Below are positions 46,734 through 64,000 of a DNA stretch of 64,000 nt, in pieces. The translations under genes were made by a program, and so were the position numbers. Each line of letters starts with the position of its first letter. The stretch's first letter is position 1. The stretch comes from Lachnospiraceae bacterium (GTDB lineage Bacteria; Bacillota; Clostridia; Lachnospirales; Lachnospiraceae), in assembly GCA_017469945.1 (NCBI GenBank), contig JAFUFI010000015.1, positions 51,427 to 115,426 on the forward strand, in the 5' to 3' direction. The notes under the pieces are model-generated. The model saw only the letters and a program-made list of their open reading frames with translations. It made no database searches and was not told the origin of the DNA.

Positions 46734-48368
<1,635 letters not shown>

Positions 48369-48381
48369 AACAGGGAATCAT

Positions 48382-48427
48382 AAGAGCCGCTTTCTTCCTG
48401 CTTGCAGGAAAGAAAGCGGCTCTTTTT
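48382..48427 (+). terminator. Intrinsic terminator of groESL
   Basis: AAGAGCCGCTTTCTTCCTGC-TT-GCAGGAAAGAAAGCGGCTCTT followed by TTT. Confidence 0.9.
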
Positions 48428-48436
48428 GATGCCCGC

Positions 48437-48604
48437 ACATGTATAAGCATAAAAGCCAATTGCGTAGCAATGGCGATATGCGCATACATGTAGGATTTCG
48501 AGAGTTGCGAAGCAACGTAGAAATCCGCTGTTTTAGTAAGCAACAGCGATTTGCGAATACTTTTTGGCAGATTGCGAGAGTTGCGAAGCAAATTAAGAAA
48601 CTCT
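48437..48604. repeat. Cluster of irregular hairpins capped by GCGNAGC mini-hairpins (REP-like)
   Basis: ATTGC-GTA-GCAAT; GAGAGTTGC-GAA-GCAA twice (48500, 48577); enclosing stems ACATGTAT/ATACATGT and GGATTTC/GAAATCC. Confidence 0.6.
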
Positions 48605-48681: not shown

Positions 48682-50625
48682 ATGGAATCGATACTCTATT
48701 TTGATTATATGGCCGTACCGCTCTATCTGATCCTCTTATATTCATCTATAGCAAGGGGGATGACAAAAGGGCGTTCCAGCCGGATCTTCAATTGGATACT
48801 TCTTACTTCTGTCATAGCTACATTTTCGGATCTTGGTTTAGAACTTCTTGTCAGAACAACACCCGTTCCCGATACAAAGCTTGCTTTGGCAAAATTCTTT
48901 GCATACAGTTATTTCCTGTTCCATAATGGGACGGGCTTTTTGTATTTCCTTTTTATCTACTCGATTACAAATACCTGGTACGCTCTCAGAAAGAAGATTC
49001 ATTTTGTCATAGTCTGTGTTCCTTTTGCTGTATTTTTGGGAACGCTTGTTTCAAATCCTTTTACTCAGAAGTGTTTTACTGTTACGGCAGAAAGCGGATA
49101 TACCAGGGGCCCTTTGATGACTGTATTTTACGCGACAGCCTCTGTATACGCGCTTTTTGGACTTGCACATCTTATCTTTTGTATACGATTCCTTGATGTC
49201 AAAAAGTGGCTTGCGCTGGTTTCCATGTATGTCCTTACATATGCCGCTGTTCTTTTCCAGTTCTTTAACGGAGCTTATCTTGTAGAACTTGCCGCTTCAG
49301 CGCTTTCCCTTTTGTTTATTGAACTTGTGGTCCTTAGGCCGGATGAGGTTCTTGACTCAGTTGTAGGGCTTCAAAGCTGGAAAGCATATCTTGATACACT
49401 GCATAAAATAATGATCACAAAGCAGAACGTTCAAGTTCTTGCAATCAAGTTTATCAATGCCAGGGAGGTTAAGACATATCTTGGTGAAGACAGATATCGT
49501 AAGTATATAAGGCTGATCGCTGATAAAGCTCTCGACCTTGCTGCGGCAGAGCATCTCCACGCGGAGCTTTTCTTCGAGCATCCCGGATCGATTTATCTTA
49601 TCATTGATGAACATGACTTTGATTCTCAGAAGGCTATTCCTACTCTTATCGGAACGGTTGAAAAGTATACATACGATTTAAAGGGTACAGGTGCTAAGCT
49701 TAATCCGAAGGTTTGTGCTATAAAATATCCCGACGGCCTCGACAATATCAGAGAGATAAAGCACCTCGGGCACCACTTCCCGGAGCTTATGCCCAGAGAC
49801 CAGATATTTATTGATGCTTCCAATATCAGTAAAACCAAGGAATTCCAGATCATCAATAATATGAATGATATTCTGACGAGGGCTATCAGAGACGAGAAAT
49901 TTGAGGTATATTATCAGCCCATCTATTCAATATGGGATCATAAGTTTATTTCTGCAGAGGCGCTACTTCGTCTTGATGACGAAAGGTACGGACAGATATC
50001 TCCGGCTGACTTTATACCCGAGGCGGAAAGAAGAGGACTTATACTACCCATCGGTGATTTTGTTCTTGATGCGGTTCACAGATTTGCATCAGAGAATGAA
50101 CTTGAAAAGCTTGGTCTTTCTTACATAGAGATCAACCTTTCCGTTGCACAGTGCCTCGAGAGAGAACTCCCCAGCAAGATGGAAGCGCTTCGCAATAAAT
50201 ACAGTGTCGGACCGGATAAGGTTAATCTCGAAATAACCGAGACTTCATACGACAATATCGGAGATATCATGGACGAGAATCTGAAGATTCTCTCCGAACA
50301 GGGATACAGCTTCTCGCTTGACGATTACGGAGTCGGATATTCCAATATACAGAGAGTATCCAAGCTTCCGCTTAAGATTGTTAAGATTGATAAAAGTCTT
50401 GTTGATAATATGAATACGGTATCAGGAAAGTCTATCATGAACAATACCGTACGCATGATGAAGGACATCAATAAGGAACTCGTTATAGAAGGTGTAGAGA
50501 CAAAGGAAGATTTTGATGCGCTCAGGCAGATGGGATGTGACTTTATCCAGGGCTTTTATTTCTCGAAGCCTCTGCCCGCTAAGGATTTTATATCTTTCCT
50601 TAAAGAAAATAATCTTGGAGCTTAA
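48682..50625 (+). CDS. Membrane-bound EAL-domain c-di-GMP phosphodiesterase (multi-TM, degenerate GGDEF, EAL)
   Basis: About 7 TM helices; VYYQP, AEALLR, INLS, EITE, LDDYGVGYSN, KIDKS, IEGVE, IQGFYFSKP. Confidence 0.93.
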   Translation: MESILYFDYMAVPLYLILLYSSIARGMTKGRSSRIFNWILLTSVIATFSDLGLELLVRTTPVPDTKLALAKFFAYSYFLFHNGTGFLYFLFIYSITNTWYALRKKIHFVIVCVPFAVFLGTLVSNPFTQKCFTVTAESGYTRGPLMTVFYATASVYALFGLAHLIFCIRFLDVKKWLALVSMYVLTYAAVLFQFFNGAYLVELAASALSLLFIELVVLRPDEVLDSVVGLQSWKAYLDTLHKIMITKQNVQVLAIKFINAREVKTYLGEDRYRKYIRLIADKALDLAAAEHLHAELFFEHPGSIYLIIDEHDFDSQKAIPTLIGTVEKYTYDLKGTGAKLNPKVCAIKYPDGLDNIREIKHLGHHFPELMPRDQIFIDASNISKTKEFQIINNMNDILTRAIRDEKFEVYYQPIYSIWDHKFISAEALLRLDDERYGQISPADFIPEAERRGLILPIGDFVLDAVHRFASENELEKLGLSYIEINLSVAQCLERELPSKMEALRNKYSVGPDKVNLEITETSYDNIGDIMDENLKILSEQGYSFSLDDYGVGYSNIQRVSKLPLKIVKIDKSLVDNMNTVSGKSIMNNTVRMMKDINKELVIEGVETKEDFDALRQMGCDFIQGFYFSKPLPAKDFISFLKENNLGA

Positions 50626-50639
50626 AAGACCTTGGACTA

Positions 50640-51434
50640 TTACTCAAAAAATCCAAGGTCGGATAAAGCTTTTGCCAGGCCGTCTTCGCTTGCCTTACCG
50701 GCAAGGTGGGCGGCTTTTACTTTTAGTTCATGGGACTCGGTATTCCCCATAACGACGCTGTGTTTTACGTAGGAGAGCATAGCAAGGTCGTTGTTGCTGT
50801 CGCCGAAAGCGTAAGCCGAGTCCAAGGGGAGATTATAGTAGTCAAGAACTTTTTGAAGGCCGGTAGCTTTGCTGTAACCTTTGGGTACAAACTCTCTGAA
50901 GGTTCCGCCTCTGTCTATGCAGTCATAGTACTTATCTGTAAACTTTCTTATCTCATTAAGCTGAGATTCTTCTCTATACCAGATGACAAACTTATCACAG
51001 GTAAATGCGGGATTGTCAATATCCATCGCGATATCGTAGTTTCTGTCAAGAAACCTTTGGCACTGCCTTATAGCATCCGGGTGGGTTAATGTATGCTTCG
51101 GGTCGAAAGTAACGTAGTATCTGCACTCATAGAGGGTGTCGACATCTATTTTCCTTGATAAATCGATAAGCTCGTGAATTCGGTCTGCAGGCTGACTTTC
51201 ATAAGAAAGCGTTTCATTACCGATCATTATATGCGTACCGCAGCCGTTTACGTATCCGTCAAAGCCAACTTCCCTGAACCTTTCCTCAACGTTTTGAAAG
51301 CAACGCCCGGTGTTAATAAACATAAGGTTTCCGGCCTGCCTTGCTCTTTGGATGGCCGATTTGGCGCTGTCAGGCACAGAGCCGTCTTTTTCTGAAGTTA
51401 ATGTTCCGTCTATATCAAAAAATGCTATTTTCAT
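50640..51434 (-). CDS. Cof-type HAD-IIB hydrolase
   Basis: FFDIDGTL, INTGR, SKATG, AFGDSNNDLAML. Confidence 0.95.
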   Translation of the reverse strand: MKIAFFDIDGTLTSEKDGSVPDSAKSAIQRARQAGNLMFINTGRCFQNVEERFREVGFDGYVNGCGTHIMIGNETLSYESQPADRIHELIDLSRKIDVDTLYECRYYVTFDPKHTLTHPDAIRQCQRFLDRNYDIAMDIDNPAFTCDKFVIWYREESQLNEIRKFTDKYYDCIDRGGTFREFVPKGYSKATGLQKVLDYYNLPLDSAYAFGDSNNDLAMLSYVKHSVVMGNTESHELKVKAAHLAGKASEDGLAKALSDLGFFE

Positions 51435-51587
51435 AATTCTTGATTTCCAAATAAACTGTTAGTTTAACAACACTGGTATCTTAACAGATACTCTGATTGC
51501 TGTAAATACTGTTGGAAACAAGGTATTGGTAATGCTATAATAGTATCATTTGGAAATTACCAATCTATATATTGTAGGGGGACAGTT

Positions 51588-52406
51588 ATGGACAATAAAT
51601 TAATGAAAGTAAAATTAAAAACAGAAAAACTTCTGGCTGGATTGAATATATTGAAAAACGTAGTCGGAGAAGATGCGAGAGTTGTGATGCTTGCACTAAT
51701 TGGACCAAAGTATAATGAGCGGAACGAAGGTTATGTGAGAACTGCATTAAGAATGATAAGCGCTACGTTGGCGGATTTTTGCATAGAGTTGTACGAGGAT
51801 GACGTTGAAATCTGTGATCAAACTTGGGATAACTTCTATATTCCTAACATGAGTCTTTCTGAATTATTAATGATCATAGCGAAAGCAGATAAGTCGGGAG
51901 AGACAGAAATGATCTTTGAGAAAGGCGGAGACAATTTGACTGTTCACGCAAAATTCATGTCTGCAAGCAATGAAGGCGTAAGTATTTCTCATGATTTTTC
52001 TGCTACAGAAGAAAGAGGCAAACATGGAGTGATTTTAGATTCTATGGACAGTGAAAGGTTTAATCTTCTCAGCTATAAAAACGTTTTTTTGGGGGGCTAT
52101 GGAATTGTCCCCATCACACGGACACAACTCATCAGCGAGCTTTCAAAAGGTATACAGGATGGCAATGACACTATCGTTGTTTCAGCAGATATTTCAGCAT
52201 TCTGGCGCGCTTATACCGATCCTATCGTAACATTCACTTTTAATATACAGCAAGCAAAGATGATTTGTACTGTAATAAAGGAATATGAGGCTAAATATGT
52301 GTTGATTTGGGAAATTCGTGAAAAAACAAAGTTTATCAGTGATGACAAAAATAATTTCTACATGCAGTTTACTCCCGGATGCAACGATATTTTTGGAAGA
52401 GGATAA
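51588..52406 (+). CDS. Hypothetical protein, possible two-domain sliding-clamp (beta-clamp/PCNA-like) fold
   Basis: 272 aa; extended -10 TGCTATAAT (51532-51540) and RBS GGGGGA. The clamp similarity is by-eye pattern matching only. Confidence 0.45.
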   Translation: MDNKLMKVKLKTEKLLAGLNILKNVVGEDARVVMLALIGPKYNERNEGYVRTALRMISATLADFCIELYEDDVEICDQTWDNFYIPNMSLSELLMIIAKADKSGETEMIFEKGGDNLTVHAKFMSASNEGVSISHDFSATEERGKHGVILDSMDSERFNLLSYKNVFLGGYGIVPITRTQLISELSKGIQDGNDTIVVSADISAFWRAYTDPIVTFTFNIQQAKMICTVIKEYEAKYVLIWEIREKTKFISDDKNNFYMQFTPGCNDIFGRG

Positions 52407-52428
52407 ATAAGAACGGAGGAAAAATATT

Positions 52429-52725
52429 ATGAGCGCAATAGAAAAAAGTCAGTATCTTTCGCCGGAACATTATCCGGAGATTGGCGGAGATGATTGGATG
52501 TGGAATGATGAATATTATGACGGAGATCCCAATATTCCCCAAGAGGTAATGGATGAAGTTGAAAAAGAACTTGAGGAAATGTTTAAGGATTATCCGAGGG
52601 GGATGGGATTTTGCCATGTTTATTGGCATCATAAAAAACAGGCTCTGGCGGCGCGCGGATATAGATGGGAAAGCCCACAGGATATCGCAAATGCAGATCC
52701 GCATAACAGAATAATATATGACTAA
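52429..52725 (+). CDS. Small acidic hypothetical protein with a GMGFCHxYWxxKK...WxSP motif
   Basis: RBS GGAGG; 98 aa. Confidence 0.75.
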   Translation: MSAIEKSQYLSPEHYPEIGGDDWMWNDEYYDGDPNIPQEVMDEVEKELEEMFKDYPRGMGFCHVYWHHKKQALAARGYRWESPQDIANADPHNRIIYD

Positions 52726-52751
52726 AGAGAGACAGAAAGAGGAATGACAGG

Positions 52752-52976
52752 ATGGATGAAGTAATAATTGATAACTCCTTGTATGATAGGATTCTATCCG
52801 GAAAAAGAATCAATCCCGCTGATTATAAAGCAATACCATACTGGGCGCTTAGTGCTAACAGCGGATATTTTATTTTTGATGACAGACCGGACGAGAACGG
52901 GAAGTATACAGATAATGGCAGAATCCCTGAAAATGCGTGGGATGTTACTTGTATTTATGACGGAGTTTTAGGATGA
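52752..52976 (+). CDS. Small hypothetical protein
   Basis: 74 aa; RBS-like AGAGG/CAGGA; stop overlaps the next ATG (ATGA), suggesting translational coupling. Confidence 0.6.
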   Translation: MDEVIIDNSLYDRILSGKRINPADYKAIPYWALSANSGYFIFDDRPDENGKYTDNGRIPENAWDVTCIYDGVLG

Positions 52977-55426
52977 AAGAACTGGAGATTAAAAAGCCTT
53001 GGGCGGTTTGGCCAACGGGGCGCATCGAGGAGAGAGATGTATATCATCCCCTTGAATATGCGTGGGATTATGACGGTGCAGATGATCTACCGATTTGTTT
53101 TAGAAATTTGAGAGAGCAGCTTCAATCTGATCCAGAATCAGTCAGCACAGATACTAAGCTTTCTAAAAGTCTAAAAGGCGCATATTTATATGCATCCGAT
53201 GCATACACTAAGCAGATGGAGGGGGCTGAGCTTATTCTTGAAGCGGCTAAGGATGAATGCCCTATCGGCATGCGAGAGTATGCAGTTGTATTGCTTGAGG
53301 GACTTGTTTGTGATAGAAATCCTGAGATAGCTTGTAAATGGCTACATTTAGCTGCGAGATATGGAGATAAAAAGGCTTTACGCATTCTTGTTTATTCCAT
53401 GTTTGGAGTTGAGAAACTTGTTGCTGTACCAAGAAAGGAAACTCTGGCAGGAGATTCACAGGGGCGTACTATATTAATATCAGATCTGTTTAATGATATG
53501 GAAATTACTGATAAGGACAGGCTGGTATATTTAAAACTTCTGATTGAACTTTCTGGGGTGCGGAGACCAAGCGGAAAAATCGGCATTCGACACGCTCCTA
53601 CTAGTTTGGATCGCAGATTTATGGGACTATTATTTGGTTATATTTTGCTTGCTAAAAAGATTGACCCCGATTTATTGCTTGAAAAATGGTTTGTAGAATA
53701 TAGATTCGACAAAAAGTTTCTACTTGAGGCTATTGAAAAAGAGCCGCTATACGACGGAGTCGTTATCAAAAATAAAATGACTTCGGATGAGCAAATGAAG
53801 GTAGTTAACGACCTTTATGAACAGTTAGATAAAAAGAAAAAGGAACTGGAAAAGGCAAAGAAAAAAGCAGAAGAATTGAAAAAAGAAAATATTCATCCGG
53901 AAATTGTCGATGAAGAGACAGGGGAATTAACTGAATTTCCCCCTTTGTTTCAAGGAAGATATAATGATTACGACTTATATGATAGTTCTTCAATCTGTAA
54001 CGCATCCAGAGCGGAGTTGATTCATTGGACTTTAGCTAAGGGAAGCGGATGGCTAAGTTGTAACCACCGTGTAAATCCGCATAGTTTGGTATACTGTGCG
54101 AGAACCTTGGTTCGCAGGGCACTCAACAAGGGGCAAGACATTTGTAACATAAAAGAGCGTAATCGCTTGATCGAGGCGATAACGCTGATAATACAGATGA
54201 AGAATGTTAGGGAAAGTAAATTCAACTGTCTTGAAGGTTTTAGAGATAGTAATGATTACAAATATATTTTGAAAGAAGAGCAGGATATATTTGAATTAAT
54301 TGATTCATCGCCAAACAGAGATGAAATATACTATGATCTTTGCAAGCATTTTAATTATAGTCCTCTTAAAGAAAAAGCCGTGCATATTTTGATCGATAAA
54401 TATTGTGATAATTACAATGCTGATGAGATCGCCGGTTTAAAAGACGAGATTGAAAAGAATGCATTGCCCAGAGAGGCTTCATTTCTTCTTGGACTTCGTT
54501 ATGAAAGAGGACTTGGAACGGATCCGGACTGGGAAAACGCTGCGAAGTGTTTTAAGGATGGCAATGGTGGATTGTTTTCAGATCAGTGCAAGATCCATTT
54601 GGAAAAAATAGAGAGCAGCATGGAAGATTTTAACGACCTTAAGAATTCTCTTAATCTTCTACGTACTGATCAGGCTGCAACGGGAGGAGAAGAGATCGAC
54701 AAGCTTGTTAAAAAGGGATTCGATCTCGCAATGTATTTGGTTGCAAAGCAAAAGATGGAGCTTGATCCCGACATAGCTGAGCAGAATTATTATGATCTTG
54801 ATTTTGAGGGAGGAATAACGCTTCTGAAAAAAGCGGCAGAAAAGGGAAGCATTTCCGCTATCTGTGAATTGGTGAGATTATATAAGTATGGAGTTGCAAC
54901 CTCGAGGGGCGGTTATATCTACCTTGACAAAGTTGAGGCAAATAAATACCGGGATATTCTTCAAAGAATAATAAAAGAGGAACTCGGGGTAGTAGAGACA
55001 TCAAATAGGGCATATTCGATAGCCGAATTATTTCTTTCGATGGAGTGGAAGTACGATATAAAAGCGGGAGAGTTTAAATGGCAATCAGTTGAGCCCGGAT
55101 CAAAATATATTGAGGTGAATGATGGAGAGGATTACATCAGCAGTAGTAGCTCACTTTTAGATTTATTCGCATCATCAGGTGGTTCAAGTTCATACATTGA
55201 CGACGATGACTACCCATGTTCGAACAATAACTCTGATTACAATAGCTATGACGATGACCCCGGCTATGGAACCTATGAGGAAGATACCGGCGGTAGCTAT
55301 GGAAACAACAGTAATAGCAGCAATTCAGGTGAATATGACGATTTTTCTGATTACTGGCATGCTAATAATGGTTGGGAAAAGGGACTTTCCGGAAATGCAG
55401 AAGAAGATCAATGGCACTATCGGTGA
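52973..55426 (+). CDS. SEL1-like repeat protein with an acidic low-complexity C-terminal tail
   Basis: GMREYAVVLLEGLVCDRNPEIACKWLHLAARYGD, ASFLLGLRYERGLGTDPDWENAAKCF, LLKKAAEKGSISAICELVRLYKYG; D/S/N/Y-rich last ~90 aa; no signal peptide. Confidence 0.8.
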   Translation: MKELEIKKPWAVWPTGRIEERDVYHPLEYAWDYDGADDLPICFRNLREQLQSDPESVSTDTKLSKSLKGAYLYASDAYTKQMEGAELILEAAKDECPIGMREYAVVLLEGLVCDRNPEIACKWLHLAARYGDKKALRILVYSMFGVEKLVAVPRKETLAGDSQGRTILISDLFNDMEITDKDRLVYLKLLIELSGVRRPSGKIGIRHAPTSLDRRFMGLLFGYILLAKKIDPDLLLEKWFVEYRFDKKFLLEAIEKEPLYDGVVIKNKMTSDEQMKVVNDLYEQLDKKKKELEKAKKKAEELKKENIHPEIVDEETGELTEFPPLFQGRYNDYDLYDSSSICNASRAELIHWTLAKGSGWLSCNHRVNPHSLVYCARTLVRRALNKGQDICNIKERNRLIEAITLIIQMKNVRESKFNCLEGFRDSNDYKYILKEEQDIFELIDSSPNRDEIYYDLCKHFNYSPLKEKAVHILIDKYCDNYNADEIAGLKDEIEKNALPREASFLLGLRYERGLGTDPDWENAAKCFKDGNGGLFSDQCKIHLEKIESSMEDFNDLKNSLNLLRTDQAATGGEEIDKLVKKGFDLAMYLVAKQKMELDPDIAEQNYYDLDFEGGITLLKKAAEKGSISAICELVRLYKYGVATSRGGYIYLDKVEANKYRDILQRIIKEELGVVETSNRAYSIAELFLSMEWKYDIKAGEFKWQSVEPGSKYIEVNDGEDYISSSSSLLDLFASSGGSSSYIDDDDYPCSNNNSDYNSYDDDPGYGTYEEDTGGSYGNNSNSSNSGEYDDFSDYWHANNGWEKGLSGNAEEDQWHYR

Positions 55427-55483
55427 TATATTTTTCTGTTAAAAAATATCTAAACGGTGCGTAATGCATGCGGCATCTTCTTG

Positions 55484-55520
55484 ATACCTACGTCGAGACA
55501 ATCGACGTAGGTATTTTTTT
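55484..55520 (+). terminator. Intrinsic terminator closing the island operon
   Basis: 13-bp stem ATACCTACGTCGA/TCGACGTAGGTAT followed by a T tract. Confidence 0.85.
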
Positions 55521-55544
55521 ATAACGAGGAACAGAAAAAAAGTA

Positions 55545-55643
55545 TTGACAGAGGTGTTACATAGTGATATATTTACTACGACAGATGTAGTACGACAGTC
55601 GTTGGAACGACAGTAGAAGCAACGATAGACGTTATAACGACAG
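55545..55643 (+). promoter_or_regulatory. padR promoter and five-copy operator array
   Basis: TTGACA (55545)-17 bp-TATATT with TG extension; ACGA(C/T)AG at 55578, 55592, 55607, 55622, 55637. Confidence 0.75.
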
Positions 55644-55682
55644 GTAAAGTAAATATATGCAGCTTGAAAGGAGAGAAAAGCG

Positions 55683-56033
55683 ATGACAGAGATCAGCAGC
55701 GATGTTATTCGCGGATGCAATGACACGATCATCCTGTATTGCCTGCTTTCGGAACCGTCTTACGGATATGAAATTTCCAAGATGATCAAGACTAAGTCCG
55801 AAGGTAAGTACATTATCAAGGAGACAACTCTTTACTCCGCTTTTTCAAGAATGGAGAAAAACGGATATGTGGAATCTTATTCCGGCGAAGCGGAAGGAAC
55901 GGGGAAAAAACGTACGTATTACCGCATAACAGACGAAGGCAGAAAGTATTATTCGGAAAAATGCGAAGAGTGGACCCTTACCAAGGAAGTAATCGAGAGA
56001 TTTATAGAGGAGAACAGCAATGGAAACTATTAA
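55683..56033 (+). CDS. PadR family transcriptional regulator
   Basis: SYGYEISK, IKETTLYSAFSRMEKNG, RTYYRITDEGR, WTLTKEVI. Confidence 0.95.
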   Translation: MTEISSDVIRGCNDTIILYCLLSEPSYGYEISKMIKTKSEGKYIIKETTLYSAFSRMEKNGYVESYSGEAEGTGKKRTYYRITDEGRKYYSEKCEEWTLTKEVIERFIEENSNGNY

Positions 56034-57042
56034 AAACTATCTTGACGCTATGTTTGCAAATCTTCCCAACAAAACGTCGGTTAAAAAGGCCAAGGATGAA
56101 CTTTGGCAGATGATGGAAGATAAGTTTAATGAGCTTATTGCCGAAGGAAAGACAGAAAATGAAGCTGTGGGAACAGTTATCTCGGAGTTCGGTAACTTAA
56201 GCGAACTTGCGGAAGTCTTGGGACTTGAGGACGAAGTAGGCCGGGACGAAGCGGGGGACGAAACTGAAACAGAAGCCGAGAGATTTACTAAGGATGAGGC
56301 GCCTGCAATCATTATCGCAAGAGATGAGGCGGAGAATCTTCTTAAAGAAAGCGCGGAAAGATCAACGAAGATAAGTCTCGGAATCGCGCTTTGCGTTATG
56401 AGCCCCGTTCTTGGAATCATTTCAGAAGCCGTTTTAAACGGAAAGGGAAGCTTTATAAACTTCTTGCTTGTATGCCTTACGGTGGCGGCCGGCGTGATAA
56501 TGATCGTGCTTGGAGCAAACGCAGGCGAGAACTGGAAGAAGTATTCAAAGAAAAAATGCACCCTTTCTATGGATGCCACAAAGTTCGTTGCCGAAGAGAA
56601 AGCAATTTACGATAGGACCCATACTCTTATACTAACCGTTGGCATTTTGCTTTTTGTAGTAAGCTGGATCCCTGCTGTTATCATTTCGAATGTGATTCCG
56701 GCATTTGATGACCTTGGCGGTGCATTCTTCTTTATCTGCGTAGGCATCGGAGTACTTCTTGTTGTATACAGCAGCTTACGTTCAAGAGGATATGAAAGCC
56801 TTCTTAAGCTTAACGGAAGCGGTACGATCAAGTATTCATACGAGCCTGAGGAACAGGGTGAGTACAAATATATCAGCCCGATCGCAGACTTTTGCATGTC
56901 AATCTATTGGCCTTTTATGACCTGCCTCTATCTTATTTTAAGCTTTACGACAATGTACTGGGGACTTACCTGGATCATCTGGCCCGTAGCCGGTGTATTA
57001 CATAGGCCTTTAAAGAAGGCTCTCAGATACAAAGAACAGTAG
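56020..57042 (+). CDS. Membrane protein with an N-terminal permease-prefix (HAAS/DUF1700-like) domain
   Basis: IKNYLDAMFANLP...KDELWQMMEDKFNELIAEGKTENEAVGTVISEFG followed by about 6 TM helices. Confidence 0.8.
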   Translation: METIKNYLDAMFANLPNKTSVKKAKDELWQMMEDKFNELIAEGKTENEAVGTVISEFGNLSELAEVLGLEDEVGRDEAGDETETEAERFTKDEAPAIIIARDEAENLLKESAERSTKISLGIALCVMSPVLGIISEAVLNGKGSFINFLLVCLTVAAGVIMIVLGANAGENWKKYSKKKCTLSMDATKFVAEEKAIYDRTHTLILTVGILLFVVSWIPAVIISNVIPAFDDLGGAFFFICVGIGVLLVVYSSLRSRGYESLLKLNGSGTIKYSYEPEEQGEYKYISPIADFCMSIYWPFMTCLYLILSFTTMYWGLTWIIWPVAGVLHRPLKKALRYKEQ

Positions 57043-57081
57043 ATAGGCAACTGATATACAGATTAAATAAGGAGTAAGGAT

Positions 57082-57957
57082 ATGAAAGCACTCAAAACAA
57101 TAGCAATTGTTATAATGTTTACGTTAACCGCAATCGTCATCGCTTTGGTTATCGGAAGAAGATTTAACGGATTTAAAAGCGGAAGGTTTGATATTGCGGC
57201 CATGAATAAAGAATTTGAAGAAGTAGAGGGAAAACTGGAGAGCTTTAAGGACATAGAGGTTAACTCGGATGTGGTTTCTCTTAGGATAGAGAAGGGAAAC
57301 GATTTTGGATACATGTATAAGTTCCCCGAAAATGTAAATGTTGATTTTAATGTTGAGGATGAGAAATTAAAAGTAACAGTTAAATTCCCTGTTAATTTTA
57401 TAGGAAACGCCGGACTCAGATTCCCTAAGGACGGATACCAGATGGTTATTTATGTTCCCGAAGGAACAAAGCTCGGTGATCTTGAGACCAATTTTGACGC
57501 AGGTGATATGAGGGTTTCAGGTTTTACTTTTGAAAAGATTAATATTGACGGGGACGCGGGGAATGTTATTTTCGACAATATTAAATCCGAAAAGTTAAGT
57601 ATAAAGACTGATGCCGGCAATGTAGAGATCAGCGATTCAAAGGTAGGAGATACCAATATTTCTTCCGACGCAGGTAACATCGAACTGACAGATGTTACGG
57701 CAAAAGATATTAACGCCGATACCGATATGGGTAATATTGAACTTAAAAATACCGACTTCGAGGAAGGAGAGTTTACTTCCGAACTCGGAAATATAGAGGT
57801 CTTCGGAGACTTTAAAAAGATCACCGCAAAGTGCAGCCTCGGAAACGTTGAGATTGATTCCGATACCATCGAAAGCGCTAAGATAAGTGCCAAAGTATCA
57901 ATGGGAGCTCTGAAAATCGGAGGAAAGCATATAAAAGGTACTGAGTATAATCAGTAA
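57082..57957 (+). CDS. DUF4097 family beta-strand repeat protein
   Basis: N-terminal TM helix; repeats D.DAGN.E, DTDMGNIE, SELGNIE, CSLGNVE. Confidence 0.88.
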   Translation: MKALKTIAIVIMFTLTAIVIALVIGRRFNGFKSGRFDIAAMNKEFEEVEGKLESFKDIEVNSDVVSLRIEKGNDFGYMYKFPENVNVDFNVEDEKLKVTVKFPVNFIGNAGLRFPKDGYQMVIYVPEGTKLGDLETNFDAGDMRVSGFTFEKINIDGDAGNVIFDNIKSEKLSIKTDAGNVEISDSKVGDTNISSDAGNIELTDVTAKDINADTDMGNIELKNTDFEEGEFTSELGNIEVFGDFKKITAKCSLGNVEIDSDTIESAKISAKVSMGALKIGGKHIKGTEYNQ

Positions 57958-58060
57958 AGATCTGTAAAAAGGCTTGAAAAAACTGAAAAAATCCATATTT
58001 TATGTTGACTTTTGTATATTTAAAGCGTAATATAAGTTATGTAAATTATGGTAACTATTG

Positions 58061-58087
58061 AGAGTGGCTTGCGAGCCACTCTTTTTT
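58061..58087 (+). promoter_or_regulatory. Leader hairpin/attenuator upstream of the rimP-nusA-infB operon
   Basis: AGAGTGGC-TTGCGA-GCCACTCT plus T5, downstream of TTGACT (58005)-17 bp-TAATAT. Such terminator-like leaders are typical of Firmicutes rimP operons. Confidence 0.65.
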
Positions 58088-58132
58088 AGCGCAGAAGCCA
58101 AATCGCCGGGTTTCGGCAAAAAGGAAGACTAA

Positions 58133-58597
58133 ATGAGTAAAAGCAGTGATTATGAAGCAAAGACAGAAGAGCTCCTTCGCCCTATTGCAGAGCAGTACGG
58201 AGTCAGGATCTACGATGTCGAGTATGTAAAAGAAGGAAGCGATTATTACCTTCGTTCATACATAGACAAAGACGGCGGCGTTAATATCGAAGATTGCGAG
58301 AACGTCAGCAGAGCTCTTTCGGACGCGCTGGACAAAGATGACTTCATAGATGAAGCCTACATCATGGAAGTATCCAGCCCCGGCCTCGGCCGCACCCTTA
58401 AAAAGGATCGCCACTTAGAGTACTCTATCGGTGAAGAAGTCGAGATCAAACTTTACAAACCCATAGACGGTTGCAAGGACTTCGAAGGAACCCTCAAATC
58501 CTTTGACAAGGATAACATAGTTATTTCTGTTGACGACGTTGAGAAAATATTCTCACGTAAGGACATAGCTATAATAAGATTGAAACTTGACTTCTAA
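58133..58597 (+). CDS. rimP: Ribosome maturation factor RimP
   Basis: YDVEYVKEG, IDKDGGVNIEDCENVSR, MEVSSPGLGR.LK. Confidence 0.97.
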   Translation: MSKSSDYEAKTEELLRPIAEQYGVRIYDVEYVKEGSDYYLRSYIDKDGGVNIEDCENVSRALSDALDKDDFIDEAYIMEVSSPGLGRTLKKDRHLEYSIGEEVEIKLYKPIDGCKDFEGTLKSFDKDNIVISVDDVEKIFSRKDIAIIRLKLDF

Positions 58598-58615
58598 TTA
58601 AAATTATTAATTACA

Positions 58616-58767
58616 GCGGGAGAGCGTAGTGAGCTGTTCTGAGAGCAATGTGTCCGAGGCCAGCACTTGTTGAGTGCGAGTACTACGAAGCACGAAACTA
58701 GTACTGCTGCTTCGAGGACCCATAGCTGAGAAGCGATGCTCGAAGAACACTCACGAGCTAGGCCCGC
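58616..58767 (+). repeat. Structured repeat, copy 3 (same family as 19478-19640 and 19836-19992)
   Basis: Core AGCAATGTGTCCGAGGCC...CGAGGACCCATAGCT-GAGA-AGCGATGCT; outer stem GCGGG...GTGAG-TGTTC / GAACA-CTCAC...CCCGC. Confidence 0.75.
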
Positions 58768-58837
58768 GTCACTAGGACAATTTATTTTAGGATACATAAA
58801 AACTGAATATATTTAACGGAGGAAAAAAGAAAAAACT

Positions 58838-59971
58838 ATGAACACAGAACTGATGGAAGCACTTAACCTGCTTGAGAGAGAGAAAGGCATTAGCCGCGAC
58901 GTACTTCTCGATGCTATCGAGAATTCACTTATGCAGGCTTGCGAGAAGAACTTCGGATCAAGCGAGAATGTGCACGTTGAGATAGACCGTGAGACCTGCG
59001 ATTATCTCGTATATGCTGAGAAAGAGGTCGTTGAAACCTGCGCTGACGTTGCGGACAAGAATACTCAGATCAGCCTCGAGGATGCAAAGAAGATCTCCAA
59101 GAAGGCTAAGGTCGGAGACGTTATCAATGTTGAGATCAAGTCCAAGGAATTCGGACGTATCGCTGCACAGAACGCTAAGCAGGTTATCGTTCAGAAGATC
59201 AGAGAAGAAGAGAGAAACGTAATCTTCAATCAGTACTTTGAAAAGGAGAAGAACGTTGTTACCGGTATCGTACAGAGAATCATCGGAAAGAACGTATCTT
59301 TAAACCTCGGAAAGGCAGACGCTATCCTCGCTGAAGGTGAGATGGCAGAGGGCGAGACTTTCCGTATCGGCCAGAGAGTAAAGGTTTATGTACTTGATGT
59401 AAAGAGCTCAACAAAGGGACCTCGCATCAACGTAAGCCGCACTCATCCGGAACTCGTTAAGAGACTTTTCGAAGAGGAAGTTACCGAGATCGCTGACGGA
59501 ACAGTTGAGATAAAGAGCATTGCCCGTGAGGCCGGAAGCCGTACCAAGATCGCTGTATGGAGCAACAATGAAAATGTTGATCCCGTTGGTGCCTGCGTAG
59601 GTATGAACGGCGCGAGAGTAAATGCAATCGTTGATGAACTCGGCGGAGAGAAGATCGATATCGTTAACTGGGATGAGGATCCCGGAAGACTTGTTCAGAA
59701 TGCGCTTTCACCTGCTACCGTTGTAGCGGTATTTGCGGATCCTGATGAAAAGTCTGCTAAGGTTGTAGTTCCCGACGATCAGCTTTCACTTGCCATCGGT
59801 AAGGAAGGCCAGAACGCAAGACTTGCAGCAAAGCTTACCAACTATAAGATTGATATCAAGTCTGAGTCACAGGCTCAGGATGCTCCCGGATTCCGTTATG
59901 AAGATTATCTTTATGATGATGAGGAGGAGTACGATGAGGAGTACTCTGAAGAGAATCCTGACGAAGTATAA
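58838..59971 (+). CDS. nusA: Transcription termination factor NusA
   Basis: FGRIAAQNAKQVI, SRTHPELVKRLFEEEV.EI, AREAGSRTKIAV, AIGKEGQNARLAA. Confidence 0.99.
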   Translation: MNTELMEALNLLEREKGISRDVLLDAIENSLMQACEKNFGSSENVHVEIDRETCDYLVYAEKEVVETCADVADKNTQISLEDAKKISKKAKVGDVINVEIKSKEFGRIAAQNAKQVIVQKIREEERNVIFNQYFEKEKNVVTGIVQRIIGKNVSLNLGKADAILAEGEMAEGETFRIGQRVKVYVLDVKSSTKGPRINVSRTHPELVKRLFEEEVTEIADGTVEIKSIAREAGSRTKIAVWSNNENVDPVGACVGMNGARVNAIVDELGGEKIDIVNWDEDPGRLVQNALSPATVVAVFADPDEKSAKVVVPDDQLSLAIGKEGQNARLAAKLTNYKIDIKSESQAQDAPGFRYEDYLYDDEEEYDEEYSEENPDEV

Positions 59972-59986
59972 AGTAAGAGGAAATAA

Positions 59987-60256
59987 ATGGCAAAACAGAT
60001 TCCTGCCAGAGTATGTATAGGCTGTGGCGAAAAAAAGGAAAAGAATAAACTGATCCGGATAGTAAGAAGCAGCGAAGGTGTGTACGAACTCGACGAAAGC
60101 GGAAAGAAAAACGGAAGAGGCGCTTATATCTGTAAAAATGAGGAGTGCCTTAATCTCGCTTTCAAGAGAAAAGGTCTGGATAGGTCTTTTAAGGAAAGCG
60201 TACCTGAGGAAACGGTTTTAAAACTGAAAGGAGAGCTTGAAAATCTTGAACAATGA
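59987..60256 (+). CDS. ylxR: YlxR (RnpM) family RNA-binding protein
   Basis: P.RVCIGCGEKKEK..LIRIVR, GRGAYIC...C. Confidence 0.93.
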   Translation: MAKQIPARVCIGCGEKKEKNKLIRIVRSSEGVYELDESGKKNGRGAYICKNEECLNLAFKRKGLDRSFKESVPEETVLKLKGELENLEQ

Positions 60257-60554
60257 AGAAAAAGCTCTTTCCCTGCTGGGCCTCGCCTACAGAGGAAGAA
60301 ATCTTACAAGCGGTGAAGATCAGGTTTTGGACGCCATACGAAGCGGTAAGGCTAAACTTGTTATTGTGGCAAAAGATGCCTCGGACGGAACCAGAAAGCT
60401 TTTTAACGACAAATGTACATATTACGGAGTCGATATTAAGATCTGGGGAACAAAGGCGGGCATCGGACACGCCATCGGCAAGGAAACGAGAGCTTCTATC
60501 GCCGTTACGGAATCGGGGTTTGCCGGAAAACTTGTTACTTTAATGGAAAAATGA
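60237..60554 (+). CDS. ylxQ: L7Ae/L30e-like protein
   Basis: [35 protein letters not shown]. Confidence 0.9.
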
Positions 60555-60573
60555 TCGAAAGGATGTTTTGAAT

Positions 60574-63483
60574 ATGGCAAAAAAAAGGATACATGAAATA
60601 GCAAAGGATCTCGGAGTAGAAAGCAAAGATGTACTTGCTGTGTGCGCTCAGAAGGGCTTTAACGCAACAACATCATCAAGCGGACTCGATGAAGATCAGA
60701 TAGCAGAAATAAAAAAGTATTTTTCTAAGGCATCTGACAAGGCTGAAAGTGAAAAGAAGGCCGATAATAAGAGCGAAAAGAAGCCTGAAAAGACTGAAAA
60801 TGCTCCCAAGGCAGAAAACAAGGCAGAGGAAAAGGCACCTGCAAAGCAGCCTCAGACTGAGGAAAAGGCGCCCGCAAAGCAGTCCCAGCCTCAGGCAAAG
60901 CAGGCTCAGCCCCAGCAGGCTTCTCAGGAACAGCCCAAGAAAAAGAGAATCAGTATTGTACTTAATGACAAGGCACGTCCCGGAAACGGCGGTGGAAGAC
61001 CTCAGAATCAGCAGGGCGGAGGAAGACCCGGCGGACAGGGAGGCTATAATCAGTCAAGACCTCAGCAGCCTGTGGGAAGGATCAAGCCCCTTACCCCTCC
61101 TTCACCTACTCCCAGCGTAGCTATGGTTCCCGAGAATAAGGGATTCCAGCCTAAGAAGCCTCATGAGAGTGCTCCAGCTGTAAAGGAAGCTGCTCCTGCA
61201 GCAAATATCGCACAGGCACCTGTTAAGGAAAATACTGCTCCGATTAAGGAAAACGTTCAGAAGGGATTCGTAAATGGCGGTGATGCACAGGCTGCCGGCA
61301 GAGGCGCAGACCGCCAGGGAGCCGGCAATCGTCCCGCATCAGACAGATTTGCAAACAACAGAGGAGGTGCTGTTAATGGCAAAGTTAAAAACGATGGTCA
61401 AAAACCTCTCAGGCCGCAAGGGGAAGGCTTTAAGGGGAATAACAGGAACGGCAATAGCAATCCAGGCCCTGGCCGTGGCTTTAATAATAGTGGTCGAGAT
61501 GGCAGACCTAATGAAAGACAGGGAGCTGGATTTGGAGAAAATAGGAATCAAAAAGGCTTCCAGAATCAGGCAGCGCCCGCTGAAGGCGGCGACAAGTCCC
61601 GCGGAGGAAGAAGAGACAAGGGCAAAGACAGAGACAGACGCAAGGATATAGCCTTTGAGGAAGAGAACGAGGTTAAGCGCGCAGGAAGATTCATCAAGCC
61701 CGAGAAGAAGGTTGAAGTTGTAGAGGAAGTTATCAAGGTTATCACCCTTCCCGATACCATCACCATCAAAGATCTCGCTGAGAAGATGAAGCAGCGTCCC
61801 GCTGACATCGTTAAGAAGCTTTTCCTTGCAGGAAAGATGGTTACCTTAAACGATGAGCTCTCATTTGAGGATGCCGAGACTATCGCAATGGAGTACGAAA
61901 TCCTTTGCGAGCATGAAGTTAAGGTCGATATCATCGAAGAGCTTCTTAAAGAGGACGAAGAGGATGCAGCCCTTCTCAAGGACAGACCTCCCGTTGTCTG
62001 CGTTATGGGTCACGTTGACCATGGTAAGACTTCACTCCTTGACGCTATCAGAAAGACAAAGGTTACCGATAAAGAGGCCGGCGGTATTACCCAGGCTATC
62101 GGTGCGTATACAGTTGATGTACAGGGAAGAACAATCACTTTCCTCGATACTCCCGGACACGAAGCATTCACGGCGATGCGTATGAGAGGTGCGAACTCTA
62201 CAGATATCGCAATCCTCGTTGTAGCTGCTGATGACGGTGTTATGCCTCAGACCGTAGAAGCTATCAACCATGCAAAGGCAGCAGGCGTTGAGATCATCGT
62301 TGCTGTTAACAAGATCGATAAGCCCTCAGCTAATATCGACAGAGTAAAGCAGGAGCTTTCAGAGTACGAGCTCATTTCAGAGGACTGGGGCGGAAGTACA
62401 GTATTTGCCCCTGTTTCCGCTAAGACAGGAGAAGGAATCGACAATCTCCTTGATATGATCCTTCTTACCGCTGACGTACTTGAACTCAAGGCTAACCCCG
62501 ACAGAACCGCAAGAGGTCTTGTTATCGAGGCAGAGCTTGACAAGGGACGCGGACCGGTTGCTACCGTACTTGTACAGAAGGGTACACTTCACGTTGGAGA
62601 CTTTATCTCCGCAGGAGCTGCTTACGGTAAGGTAAGAGCTATGATCGACGATAAGGGACGCCGCGTAAAGGAAGCAACTCCTTCGACTCCCGTTGAGATC
62701 CTCGGACTTTCCGATGTTCCCGAGGCAGGTGAGGTATTCCTCGCACACGAGAACGACAAGACTGCAAGACAGTTTGCAGAGACCTATAAGGCTGAAAACA
62801 AGGCTAAGAAGCTTGAGGAGATCAAGGGTCGCATGAGCCTTGAGGACCTCTTCTCAAAGATCAAGGAAGGCAACCTTAAGGAACTCAACATCATTGTTAA
62901 GGCTGATGTTCAGGGATCCGTTGAGGCAGTTAAGGAATCCCTTACAAAGCTTTCCAATGACGAAGTAGTAGTTAAGTGCATCCACGGTGGTGTTGGTGCT
63001 ATCAACGAGTCCGACGTTTCGCTTGCAAGCGCTTCAAATGCGATCATCATCGGATTTAATGTACGTCCAGATGCTACCGCAAAGGCAACTGCTGAGGAAG
63101 AGAACGTAGACTTAAGACTTTATGATGTTATTTACAAGGCAATCGAAGATATCGAGCTTGCTATGAAGGGTATGCTTGATCCCGTATTCGAGGAGAAGGT
63201 TATCGGACATGCCGAGATCCGCCAGATCTTCAAGGCATCCGCAATCGGTAATATTTCCGGTTCCTACGTTCTTGACGGTGAGATCCAGAGAGGATGTAAG
63301 GTTCGTATTACCCGTGAAGGCGAGCAGATTTTCGAGGGTGATCTTGCTTCACTTAAGAGATTCAAGGATGATGTCAAGGAAGTTAAGGCCGGATTTGAGT
63401 GCGGACTTGTCTTTGACGGATTCGATAAGGTACAGGAACTCGATCAGGTAGAAGCATACATTATGGTAGAGGTACCCAGGTAA
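60574..63483 (+). CDS. infB: Translation initiation factor IF-2
   Basis: [55 protein letters not shown]. The ORF track starts at TTG 60568. Confidence 0.99.
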
Positions 63484-63484
63484 T

Positions 63485-63895
63485 ATGCGTAAAAACAGTA
63501 TTAAAAATACCCGTGTTAACGGAGAGGTTCAAAAAGAGCTCTCCGTTATCATAAGGGATGAAATTAAAGACCCGCGCATCAGCCCTTGGACAAGCGTTGT
63601 GGACGTTCAGGTAGCGCCCGACTTAAAGACTTGTAAGGTTTGGATCTCTGTTCTCGGAAGCGAAGAGGACAGAGACAATACCGCTAAGGGACTTAAGAGC
63701 GCAGCGCCCTATATAAGACGCGAACTGGCCCACAGACTTAATTTAAGGAATACACCGGAGATTAATTTCGTGATGGACCAGTCAATCGAGTATGGTGTCA
63801 ATATGACCCACAAGATCGATGAAGTTATCGCAAAAGATGAGAACGCTGCTAAAGAGCGGGGAGATGAGTCCGACGAAAATATTTCCGAGGATTAG
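63485..63895 (+). CDS. rbfA: Ribosome-binding factor A
   Basis: EIKDPRI, DLKTCKVWIS, LRNTPEINFVMDQSIEYG. Confidence 0.97.
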   Translation: MRKNSIKNTRVNGEVQKELSVIIRDEIKDPRISPWTSVVDVQVAPDLKTCKVWISVLGSEEDRDNTAKGLKSAAPYIRRELAHRLNLRNTPEINFVMDQSIEYGVNMTHKIDEVIAKDENAAKERGDESDENISED

Positions 63896-63924
63896 GTTAT
63901 TTTGTTTGAACAGAGAGTGGATAT

Positions 63925-64000
63925 ATGGCAGAGTGTTTTGATATTTTAAAAGAGTGCGAAGGCGCTAAGAGAATCGGTATCAGCGGTCATATCAGGCCTG
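63925..64000 (+). CDS. DHH family phosphoesterase (NrnA-like), 3'-truncated by the window edge
   Basis: MAECFDILKECEGAKRIGISGHIRP(D), the DHH motif-I start; the usual position after rbfA. Confidence 0.7.
   Translation, partial: MAECFDILKECEGAKRIGISGHIRP

Follow-up and report, generated by a model that had tools for sequence, protein, structure and literature searches.

A strain-variable islet in a ruminant-gut Lachnospiraceae joins an orphan gene to a gene triad found elsewhere in a rare cluster with AAA+ ATPase genes

We analyzed a 64,000-nucleotide stretch of contig JAFUFI010000015.1 (assembly GCA_017469945.1, Lachnospiraceae bacterium), hereafter the window, with a focus on an islet of ~4.04 kb at window positions 51499–55534. 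The islet carries four co-oriented open reading frames (ORFs) on the plus strand, encoding proteins of 272 amino acids (aa) (w272, 51588–52406), 98 aa (w98, 52429–52725), 74 aa (w74, 52752–52976), and 817 aa (w817, 52973–55426). A GGAGG-like ribosome-binding site lies ahead of each ORF, and the w74 and w817 reading frames share four bases, ATGA. These are the same genes and the same overlap that an initial annotation of this DNA had reported, along with a strong terminator and a promoter of the extended −10 type belonging to the four genes. We located both signals on the plus strand: a candidate sigma-70-type promoter with an extended −10 element (TTGGAA-N18-TGcTATAAT, 51512–51541; 10 of 12 consensus matches plus the TG) and an intrinsic terminator with a 14-bp stem, a 5-nt loop, and T7 (55483–55525), just upstream of the padR promoter. 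However, the islet promoter was identified by a consensus scan, and promoter-like sites are not enriched in the region (16 observed vs. 15.1 expected), so this is a consensus match rather than proof of a promoter.

The islet stands apart in composition. Its GC content is 38.9% vs. 44.3% for the whole window, and GC at third codon positions (GC3) is 0.357 for both w272 and w817, the lowest of the 44 window ORFs (0.395–0.58 in the others). TTA and TTG make up 0.59 of the leucine codons in w272 and 0.40 in w817; elsewhere in the window this share is mostly 0.02–0.30, with four other ORFs at 0.40–0.46. This profile agrees with the AT-rich, TTA/TTG-rich character described in the initial annotation. 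All four proteins are acidic, with isoelectric points of 5.0 (w272), 4.6 (w98), 4.2 (w74), and 4.9 (w817), in line with the earlier description of the two small ones. Hydropathy and domain scans likewise confirmed that signal peptides and an integrase are absent, as we detected no hydrophobic segment or signal peptide (maximum KD19 1.3) and no integrase or transposase domain in the four proteins.

To place the islet among related strains, we compared contigs that encode an identical PadR protein. These fall into two classes: islet-bearing contigs (L018, L021, and L022), and empty-site contigs in which a gene for a Cof-type HAD phosphatase, the left neighbor of the islet, directly adjoins padR (L019, L020, L023, L025, L026, and L027, and four further places like them). 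Over at least 16 kb, the flanks agree at ~97% identity between the classes, indicating that both represent one species, and the majority of its contigs lack the islet. Homology to the empty-site contigs stops at window position 51491/51498 and restarts at 55535/55542, and ~39 nt of unrelated filler occupy the empty site. The resulting breakpoints, near 51499 and 55535, agree almost exactly with the extent first proposed (51500–55520), and the presence/absence polymorphism between the Cof and padR genes is thus real. To the right, the islet adjoins the padR promoter (TTGACA-17-TATATT, 55545–55573), which lies outside it and is kept in both classes. The junctions between islet and flanks show only a few bases of similarity, and the islet ends carry no terminal direct or inverted repeats and no tandem repeats marking them. 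Two of three hallmarks of a genomic island are therefore present, namely polymorphism with conserved flanks and deviant composition, and the third (mobility genes, a tRNA target, or repeats) is missing. The islet is horizontally acquired, strain-variable accessory DNA in a ruminant-gut Clostridia species. The initial description of a horizontally acquired cytoplasmic module therefore holds for the acquisition, the cytoplasmic location, and the separate transcription, given the empty site, the codon usage, and the islet's own promoter and terminator. It does not hold for a single four-gene module, because only three of the four genes co-occur elsewhere and the unit divides into one gene plus three.

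By homology, these three genes, w98, w74, and w817, are a conserved syntenic triad that recurs in three other lineages, always in the order w98-like gene, w74-domain gene, Sel1 gene. In each case, the triad is embedded in a locus of 8–10 genes of conserved order from ruminant-gut Firmicutes (L005:3108–17824, L014:3457–17760, and L016:3800–19832). These full loci begin with two ClpX-like ATPases (with extra small genes following in L016) and the w98-like gene, and continue with the w74-domain protein, the Sel1 protein, a conserved protein of 235–290 aa, an ATPase of 962–1010 aa and, in two of three loci, a STAND nucleoside triphosphatase (NTPase). Orthologs in L005 and L014 are 45–59% identical, and the full cluster encodes two Sel1 proteins, one of which carries the w74 domain.

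ATPase 1 (AAA1) matches the ClpX AAA+ module (E 5e-46) and has Walker A and Walker B motifs as well as an IGF tripeptide ~84 residues after Walker B, a spot that would correspond to the ClpP-docking loop of ClpX. ATPase 2 (AAA2) lacks both Walker B and IGF. Both ClpX-like ATPases start with novel N-terminal regions of 200–310 residues. The 962–1010-aa ATPase contains two CbbX/EccA1-like AAA modules with AAA_lid_6 (E ~1e-40), and its N-terminus weakly matches an Hsp70 substrate-binding domain. The STAND NTPase, present in L005 and L016, is ~1010–1020 aa long and shows NB-ARC/NACHT signals; its place in L014 is taken by a protein of 719 aa whose kinase-like matches are faint.

None of these ATPases is encoded in the window. 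A tblastn search with all L005 and L014 proteins matched the triad only, and found no homolog of the full-locus ATPases or of the 235–290-aa protein in the 64 kb. The islet therefore has the triad of the ClpX-paralog/CbbX-like system and, within the window, not its ATPases. All triad ORFs in the islet are nevertheless intact, every family-invariant residue is kept, and the window proteins are no more divergent from other family members than those members are from each other. Because the invariants are kept and divergence is not raised, we see no sign of long-standing decay.

The remaining gene, w272, has a different history. Its sole relative, P0003 on contig L015, is 94% identical, and the two copies differ by 16 nonsynonymous and 7 synonymous changes (dN/dS 0.57), which indicates a probably weakly constrained gene, although these counts are small. 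We found no counterpart of w272 in the three full loci by BLAST or profile comparison, and its profile is related neither to their 235–290-aa family nor to a 253-aa protein that L016 encodes. Pfam (E up to 0.1), NCBIfam, and PHROGs contain no matching family, and phage records, plasmid records, and IMG/VR contain no relative. The initial annotation had called this protein clamp-like, but neither Pfam nor NCBIfam nor PDB sequence searches returned a clamp. A phmmer search against all PDB sequences (E up to 10) gave only chance matches, to azurin and L17. A DnaN/PCNA sliding clamp thus has no sequence support, with no match to DNA_pol3_beta, PCNA, or solved clamps. The single-sequence AlphaFold2 (AF2) model is too weak to use (mean predicted local distance difference test score [pLDDT] 39.7); its first 100 residues are mostly helical, unlike a clamp domain.

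Placing L015 and the runs X5, X6, and X14 on window positions 51350–52850 and 54900–55600 revealed a variant allele. In these sequences, the promoter and w272 are intact, and w272 has 97% nucleotide identity to the window copy. Downstream, two distinct internal deletions have gutted w98: an in-frame loss of 225 nt at an ATCCG microhomology, and a loss of 295 nt with GATC inserted. From the ATG of w74 onward, the sequence diverges totally into another ORF, so that w74 and w817 are replaced. On the other side, homology with the window begins at 51498 or at 51512 (the −35 box), and the left flanks differ both from the window and from each other, placing w272 in at least two left contexts besides that of the window. 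The promoter thus travels with w272. Because w272 is absent from the three triad loci and persists where the triad is destroyed, it is an independent accretion, an orphan gene that by its distribution moves with its promoter and independently of the triad. The replacement ORF of the variant allele (L015:1–1249; runs X5, X6, and X14) has a hydrophobic start (MFYYLWDLLYKVGEF...).

Within the triad, w98 combines a disordered acidic N-terminus with a conserved domain of ~60 aa. The domain has the motif PRGMGFCHVYW...W.SP, with an invariant stretch, GMGFCH[VI]YW, and an invariant end, ...[FY]D-COOH. Homologs P0005–P0007 are 59–64% identical by BLASTP, identity to the counterparts in the three full loci, each encoded directly ahead of the w74-domain gene, is 56–76%, and a search of 5.8 billion clustered proteins places the family in four clusters, one of them that of the window protein. 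An AF2 model from the four-sequence alignment reached a pLDDT of 58, with the domain predicted as three helices at pLDDT 60–80. Foldseek found no match to this model in PDB below E 4, and the family profile found nothing among PDB sequences. A scan of the genome collection with the w98 alignment also returned nothing. When we searched for the DNA pattern of GMGFCHVYW, genomes yielded Bacteroidales C-terminal domains only, and metagenomes yielded one rumen contig and one Bacteroidales contig. The w98 domain thus also ends otherwise unrelated Bacteroidales proteins of 234 and 330 aa from goat and buffalo gut metagenome-assembled genomes (L010:646–1350, L011:2374–3366, and L013:6461–7453), with the full motif PRGMGFCHVYW...W.SP..MNP...FD and with no Sel1 or AAA+ neighbors. 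It is therefore a wider, unnamed domain that crosses phyla within one habitat. We also observed that the w98-like gene is tandemly duplicated at L016:8309–9748 (as in L008 and L012), with 113-aa copies that are 96% identical. The copies are separated by the gene for a 94-aa acidic protein and by a small Sel1-like ORF of 98 aa, and upstream lies the gene for a 253-aa protein that consists of two internal repeats.

The w74 domain occurs in two forms, either free-standing (78 aa in L016 and L008) or as the C-terminus of larger proteins (591 aa in L005, 701 aa in L014). The window protein is 46–53% identical to these C-termini and to the 78-aa protein of L016, and all share the invariant pattern W..S.N.GYF..DDRPD..G...D..R....A......YDGVLG-COOH. 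In all four lineages, the w74-domain gene overlaps the Sel1 gene behind it by the same 4 bases. We also considered w74 as a truncated pseudogene of the 591/701-aa protein. This was ruled out because the free 78-aa form exists in the complete L016 system and because w74 retains all its invariant residues and remains coupled to the Sel1 gene.

The third member, w817, has a two-part structure. Alignment of homologs shows that its core (residues 1–675, 52973–54997) is a Sel1-repeat scaffold that consists, in order, of an N-module (~60–285), a Lys/Glu-rich linker, a variable middle that is absent in relative P0009, and a C-terminal Sel1 module (~495–675). The N-module is highly conserved, being 41–52% identical to those of three relatives, and contains the Sel1 repeat detected by Pfam (PF08238). 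The window protein scores 29.4 bits vs. a cut-off of 30.7, and its ortholog P0002 reaches 42.3 bits with two repeats. In a word-indexed search of 5.8 billion proteins, P0002 was the one relative of w817 (35% identity). When 1.84 billion cluster representatives were searched exhaustively with a HMMER profile, the family came to four members, including the window's own; the other 312 matches were generic Sel1 matches to the two w817 modules. The SEL1 scaffold named in the initial annotation is therefore supported for the family, with the window protein itself just below the threshold. At their N-termini, the relatives of w817 carry repeated [LI][ST]LWEEE motifs, of which the window protein has only degenerate versions. 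We found no catalytic motif in any triad protein, and Sel1 repeats without one lead us to expect that w817 acts as a protein-binding scaffold.

By contrast to the core, the Ser/Asp/Asn/Tyr-rich, low-complexity tail of w817 (residues 676–817, 54998–55426) is absent from all homologs, which end near residue 675. In the runs X5, X6, and X14, only positions 55151–55460 of the islet's 3′ end are present (~96% identity), inside otherwise different sequence. This shared stretch equals the last 91 codons of the tail plus 34 nt, and the residues that precede it in the variant gene, DDEDNYITIS, resemble NDGEDYISSS in w817. Because homologs end at ~675 and the end of the tail is shared by otherwise different sequence, the 142-residue tail is probably a recombination-derived addition of separate origin. 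The tail-sharing gene lies on other contigs of these runs and is not shown to be the ORF that replaces w74.

We then asked whether databases or the literature link these genes to defense or to mobile elements. In PADLOC (PADLOC-DB v2), w98, w74, and w817 had no match, and w272 had one chance-level match, to Drt3a (E 0.0034, 14.9 bits). Scans of the four proteins against Pfam, NCBIfam, and PHROGs gave nothing beyond the sub-threshold Sel1. No recognizable defense genes flank the islet, and the full loci do not lie within recognizable defense islands. The check for homologs in defense islands that was proposed initially thus gave no such setting, with PADLOC families unmatched and the full loci among housekeeping genes. 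We found no relatives of w98 in phage or plasmid records and none of the w817 family or the w98 motif in IMG/VR, which argues against phage or plasmid cargo. A literature search on Sel1 in a ClpX-like, CbbX, or defense context returned no description of this architecture. The survey of NTPase-centered conflict systems by Kaur, Burroughs, Iyer, and Aravind (2020; PMC7159879) does not cover it; Sel1 appears there solely as an effector domain associated with peptidoglycan. The initial statement that no described system has such a composition is therefore sustained by PADLOC, Pfam, and the literature searched.

Taken together, the analysis shows an acquired mosaic of the orphan w272 and the syntenic triad, with a Sel1-type w817 and with no ATPases in the 64-kb window. 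We consider it somewhat better than an even bet that the triad here is an ATPase-less, protein-binding sub-module of an undescribed AAA+ system. The islet would form a transcription unit of its own, running from its promoter to its terminator, and translational coupling would produce w74 and w817 in fixed proportion. The triad would be the non-enzymatic, protein-binding part of a very rare multi-gene system, in which the Sel1 solenoid of w817 would scaffold w98 and w74, with the invariant free C-termini of these two (...IYD and ...YDGVLG) as the probable points of contact. In the full system, the triad complex could present or withhold a client for a ClpX-like/ClpP machinery, as adaptor, sensor, or substrate, and the CbbX-like ATPase could assist ClpX-paralog/ClpP-dependent unfolding or proteolysis. 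We propose this mechanism because of the Sel1 solenoid, the acidic proteins with invariant C-termini, the conserved coupling, and the ClpX paralogs adjacent in the full loci. In the window copy, the ATPases would have been lost or never present, the LWEEE repeats lost, and a foreign low-complexity tail gained. What is left might act as a stand-alone binding module (possibly with housekeeping ClpXP) or as a decoy, or it might be an early-stage remnant.

Several points weigh against this interpretation. We found no RNA-seq runs containing the islet sequence, and a triad without ATPases may do nothing at all. The genes w98, w74, and w817 are easily lost in strains of the same species and in related ones, and the frequent loss of the islet in conspecifics, together with the deletion variants, shows that it is dispensable. 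A binding role for w98 is a guess, as its model is of moderate confidence and has no structural relative. The ATPase partners could conceivably be encoded elsewhere in the genome, beyond the 64-kb window. The defense context is also weak: the neighbors of the full loci are unrelated housekeeping genes, a placement that fits accessory, mobile clusters, and the full-locus ATPases show only generic AAA+ similarity in PADLOC, to DolB and IetA.

An unlikely alternative, though one that deserves real weight, is that the islet is a decaying remnant, left after the ATPases of a full ClpX-like/CbbX-like system were deleted and the Sel1 gene was fused to a foreign tail, with genes that no longer function. 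Much of the system is indeed missing from the window: every ATPase, the 235–290-aa protein, and the first ~520 aa of the 591/701-aa protein. The Sel1 protein has lost the LWEEE repeats at its N-terminus and appears chimeric at its C-terminus, w98 has been deleted twice independently and w74–w817 replaced in related contigs, most conspecific contigs lack the islet, and w272 has a dN/dS of 0.57. However, an ORF of 817 codons has persisted without a frameshift or stop, and the small ORFs, with their ribosome-binding sites and translational coupling, are intact. Evolution along the window branch is not accelerated, all family-invariant residues are retained, and the promoter and terminator are intact. 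Moreover, the full L016 system itself contains a free w74 and a short, 340-aa Sel1 protein, which makes small forms ordinary variants and not debris.

A bolder proposal, which we regard as rather improbable, is that the triad is the sensor/adaptor core of an undescribed, probably anti-phage conflict system that would unfold and degrade selected targets, with dedicated ClpX paralogs docking on ClpP and with help from the CbbX-like ATPase and the STAND NTPase. The window islet would then be a functional minimal form that uses housekeeping ClpXP, or a decoy. The STAND NTPase in the full loci suggests a conflict or immunity setting. Still, only the triad's company elsewhere (AAA+ ATPases and the STAND NTPase) points to an anti-phage role.

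The model of the initial annotation, a four-gene anti-phage or replication-surveillance system built from a clamp-like 272-aa protein, small acidic proteins, and a Sel1 scaffold, now seems very unlikely. The four genes do share one promoter, one terminator, and tight spacing, the islet is strain-variable like many defense genes, and relatives of the triad adjoin STAND and AAA+ NTPases. Yet w272 never accompanies the triad elsewhere and outlasts it where it is destroyed, and Pfam, NCBIfam, and PDB searches gave no clamp signal for it, with an unusable AF2 model. PADLOC returned only the chance-level Drt3a match for w272 and nothing for the other three proteins. An effector domain is absent, the flanks hold no recognizable defense genes, and we found no evidence for the suggested role in DNA-replication surveillance. 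Least probable of all is a decoy or counter-measure by which the ATPase-less triad inhibits or mimics the full system or housekeeping ClpXP, for example carried by a mobile element to blunt ClpX-paralog-based immunity, for although the presumed binding parts are kept with all motors missing, the islet is mobile and mosaic, and the proteins are acidic like many inhibitors, this purely speculative idea meets with no phage, plasmid, or IMG/VR relatives, no mobility genes, and a location in a chromosomal core region.

The surroundings of the islet provided further observations. The ~0.9 kb to its left (50578–51491, the Cof gene) is only ~87% identical in L019, L020, L025, and L027 and 92% identical in L023 and L026, with the right flank (55535–64000) at ~97%. 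Recombination at the islet thus seems to have exchanged a section of the left flank as well. The stretch from the padR promoter to the padR start codon contains, at 55592–55643, a 15-nt unit (ACGACAGTCGTTGCA-like) that is imperfectly repeated ~3.5 times in tandem; these copies are common to islet-bearing and empty-site strains and may be PadR operator sites. Directly downstream of groEL, positions 48365–48536 (plus strand) match the Clostridiales-1 small RNA (Rfam RF01699, 113.6 bits), which supports a Clostridia host for the window.

As a small accessory islet, the segment is of modest direct importance, and no other form of the system is less informative than the window copy. It matters mainly because it points to a very rare cluster, found in three lineages among billions of proteins. 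This cluster is apparently new in combining ClpX paralogs (one apparently ClpP-docking), a CbbX/EccA-like double ATPase, Sel1 scaffolds, two small domains and, often, also a STAND NTPase. The analysis further defines both of these domains as new, namely the PRGMGFCHVYW domain, which extends to Bacteroidales, and the ...DDRPD...YDGVLG domain. Should the cluster prove to serve immunity or regulated proteolysis, the ATPase-less islet and the deletion variants would show which parts can stand alone.

Among known systems, the NTPase-centered conflict systems (PMC7159879) resemble the full loci in combining chaperone-type AAA+ ATPases, repeat proteins, a STAND NTPase, and variable positions. However, the core ATPases of those systems are MoxR-vWA or GTPases, as opposed to ClpX-like and CbbX-like ATPases here; the full loci have no effector-associated domains or recognizable effectors, and the window has no NTPase. 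The EccA/CbbX/SpoVK ATPases are matched by the two CbbX/EccA1-like modules and AAA_lid_6 of the 962–1010-aa partner, which is not encoded in the window. EccA pairs its AAA module with TPR-type repeats, whereas the full-locus protein has an Hsp70-SBD-like N-terminus instead, and the full loci lack secretion-system genes.

Sel1-like repeat (SLR) proteins (PF08238), such as Helicobacter Hcp, Legionella LpnE/EnhC, and eukaryotic Sel1L/Hrd3, share with the w817 family its Sel1 repeats, present here in two modules. They differ in that bacterial SLR proteins are mostly secreted or periplasmic and w817 is cytoplasmic, and in that the w817 gene is translationally coupled to a small-domain gene. In addition, w817 falls just below the Pfam cut-off, and its regions outside the repeats are related only to three family members among the 1.84 billion representatives. 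Sel1L/Hrd3 works with the AAA+ unfoldase Cdc48 in substrate selection, which offers an analogy only. Lastly, ClpX adaptors and anti-adaptors of the SspB and RssB/Ira type show no sequence or fold relationship to the triad. The full-locus ClpX paralogs carry novel N-domains of 200–310 aa instead of the zinc-binding domain of ClpX, and the window has no ClpX paralog. Still, in the full loci the triad stands beside ClpX paralogs, one of them with an IGF tripeptide, and its small acidic proteins with invariant termini, joined to a scaffold, would make such adaptors the working analogy for the system.

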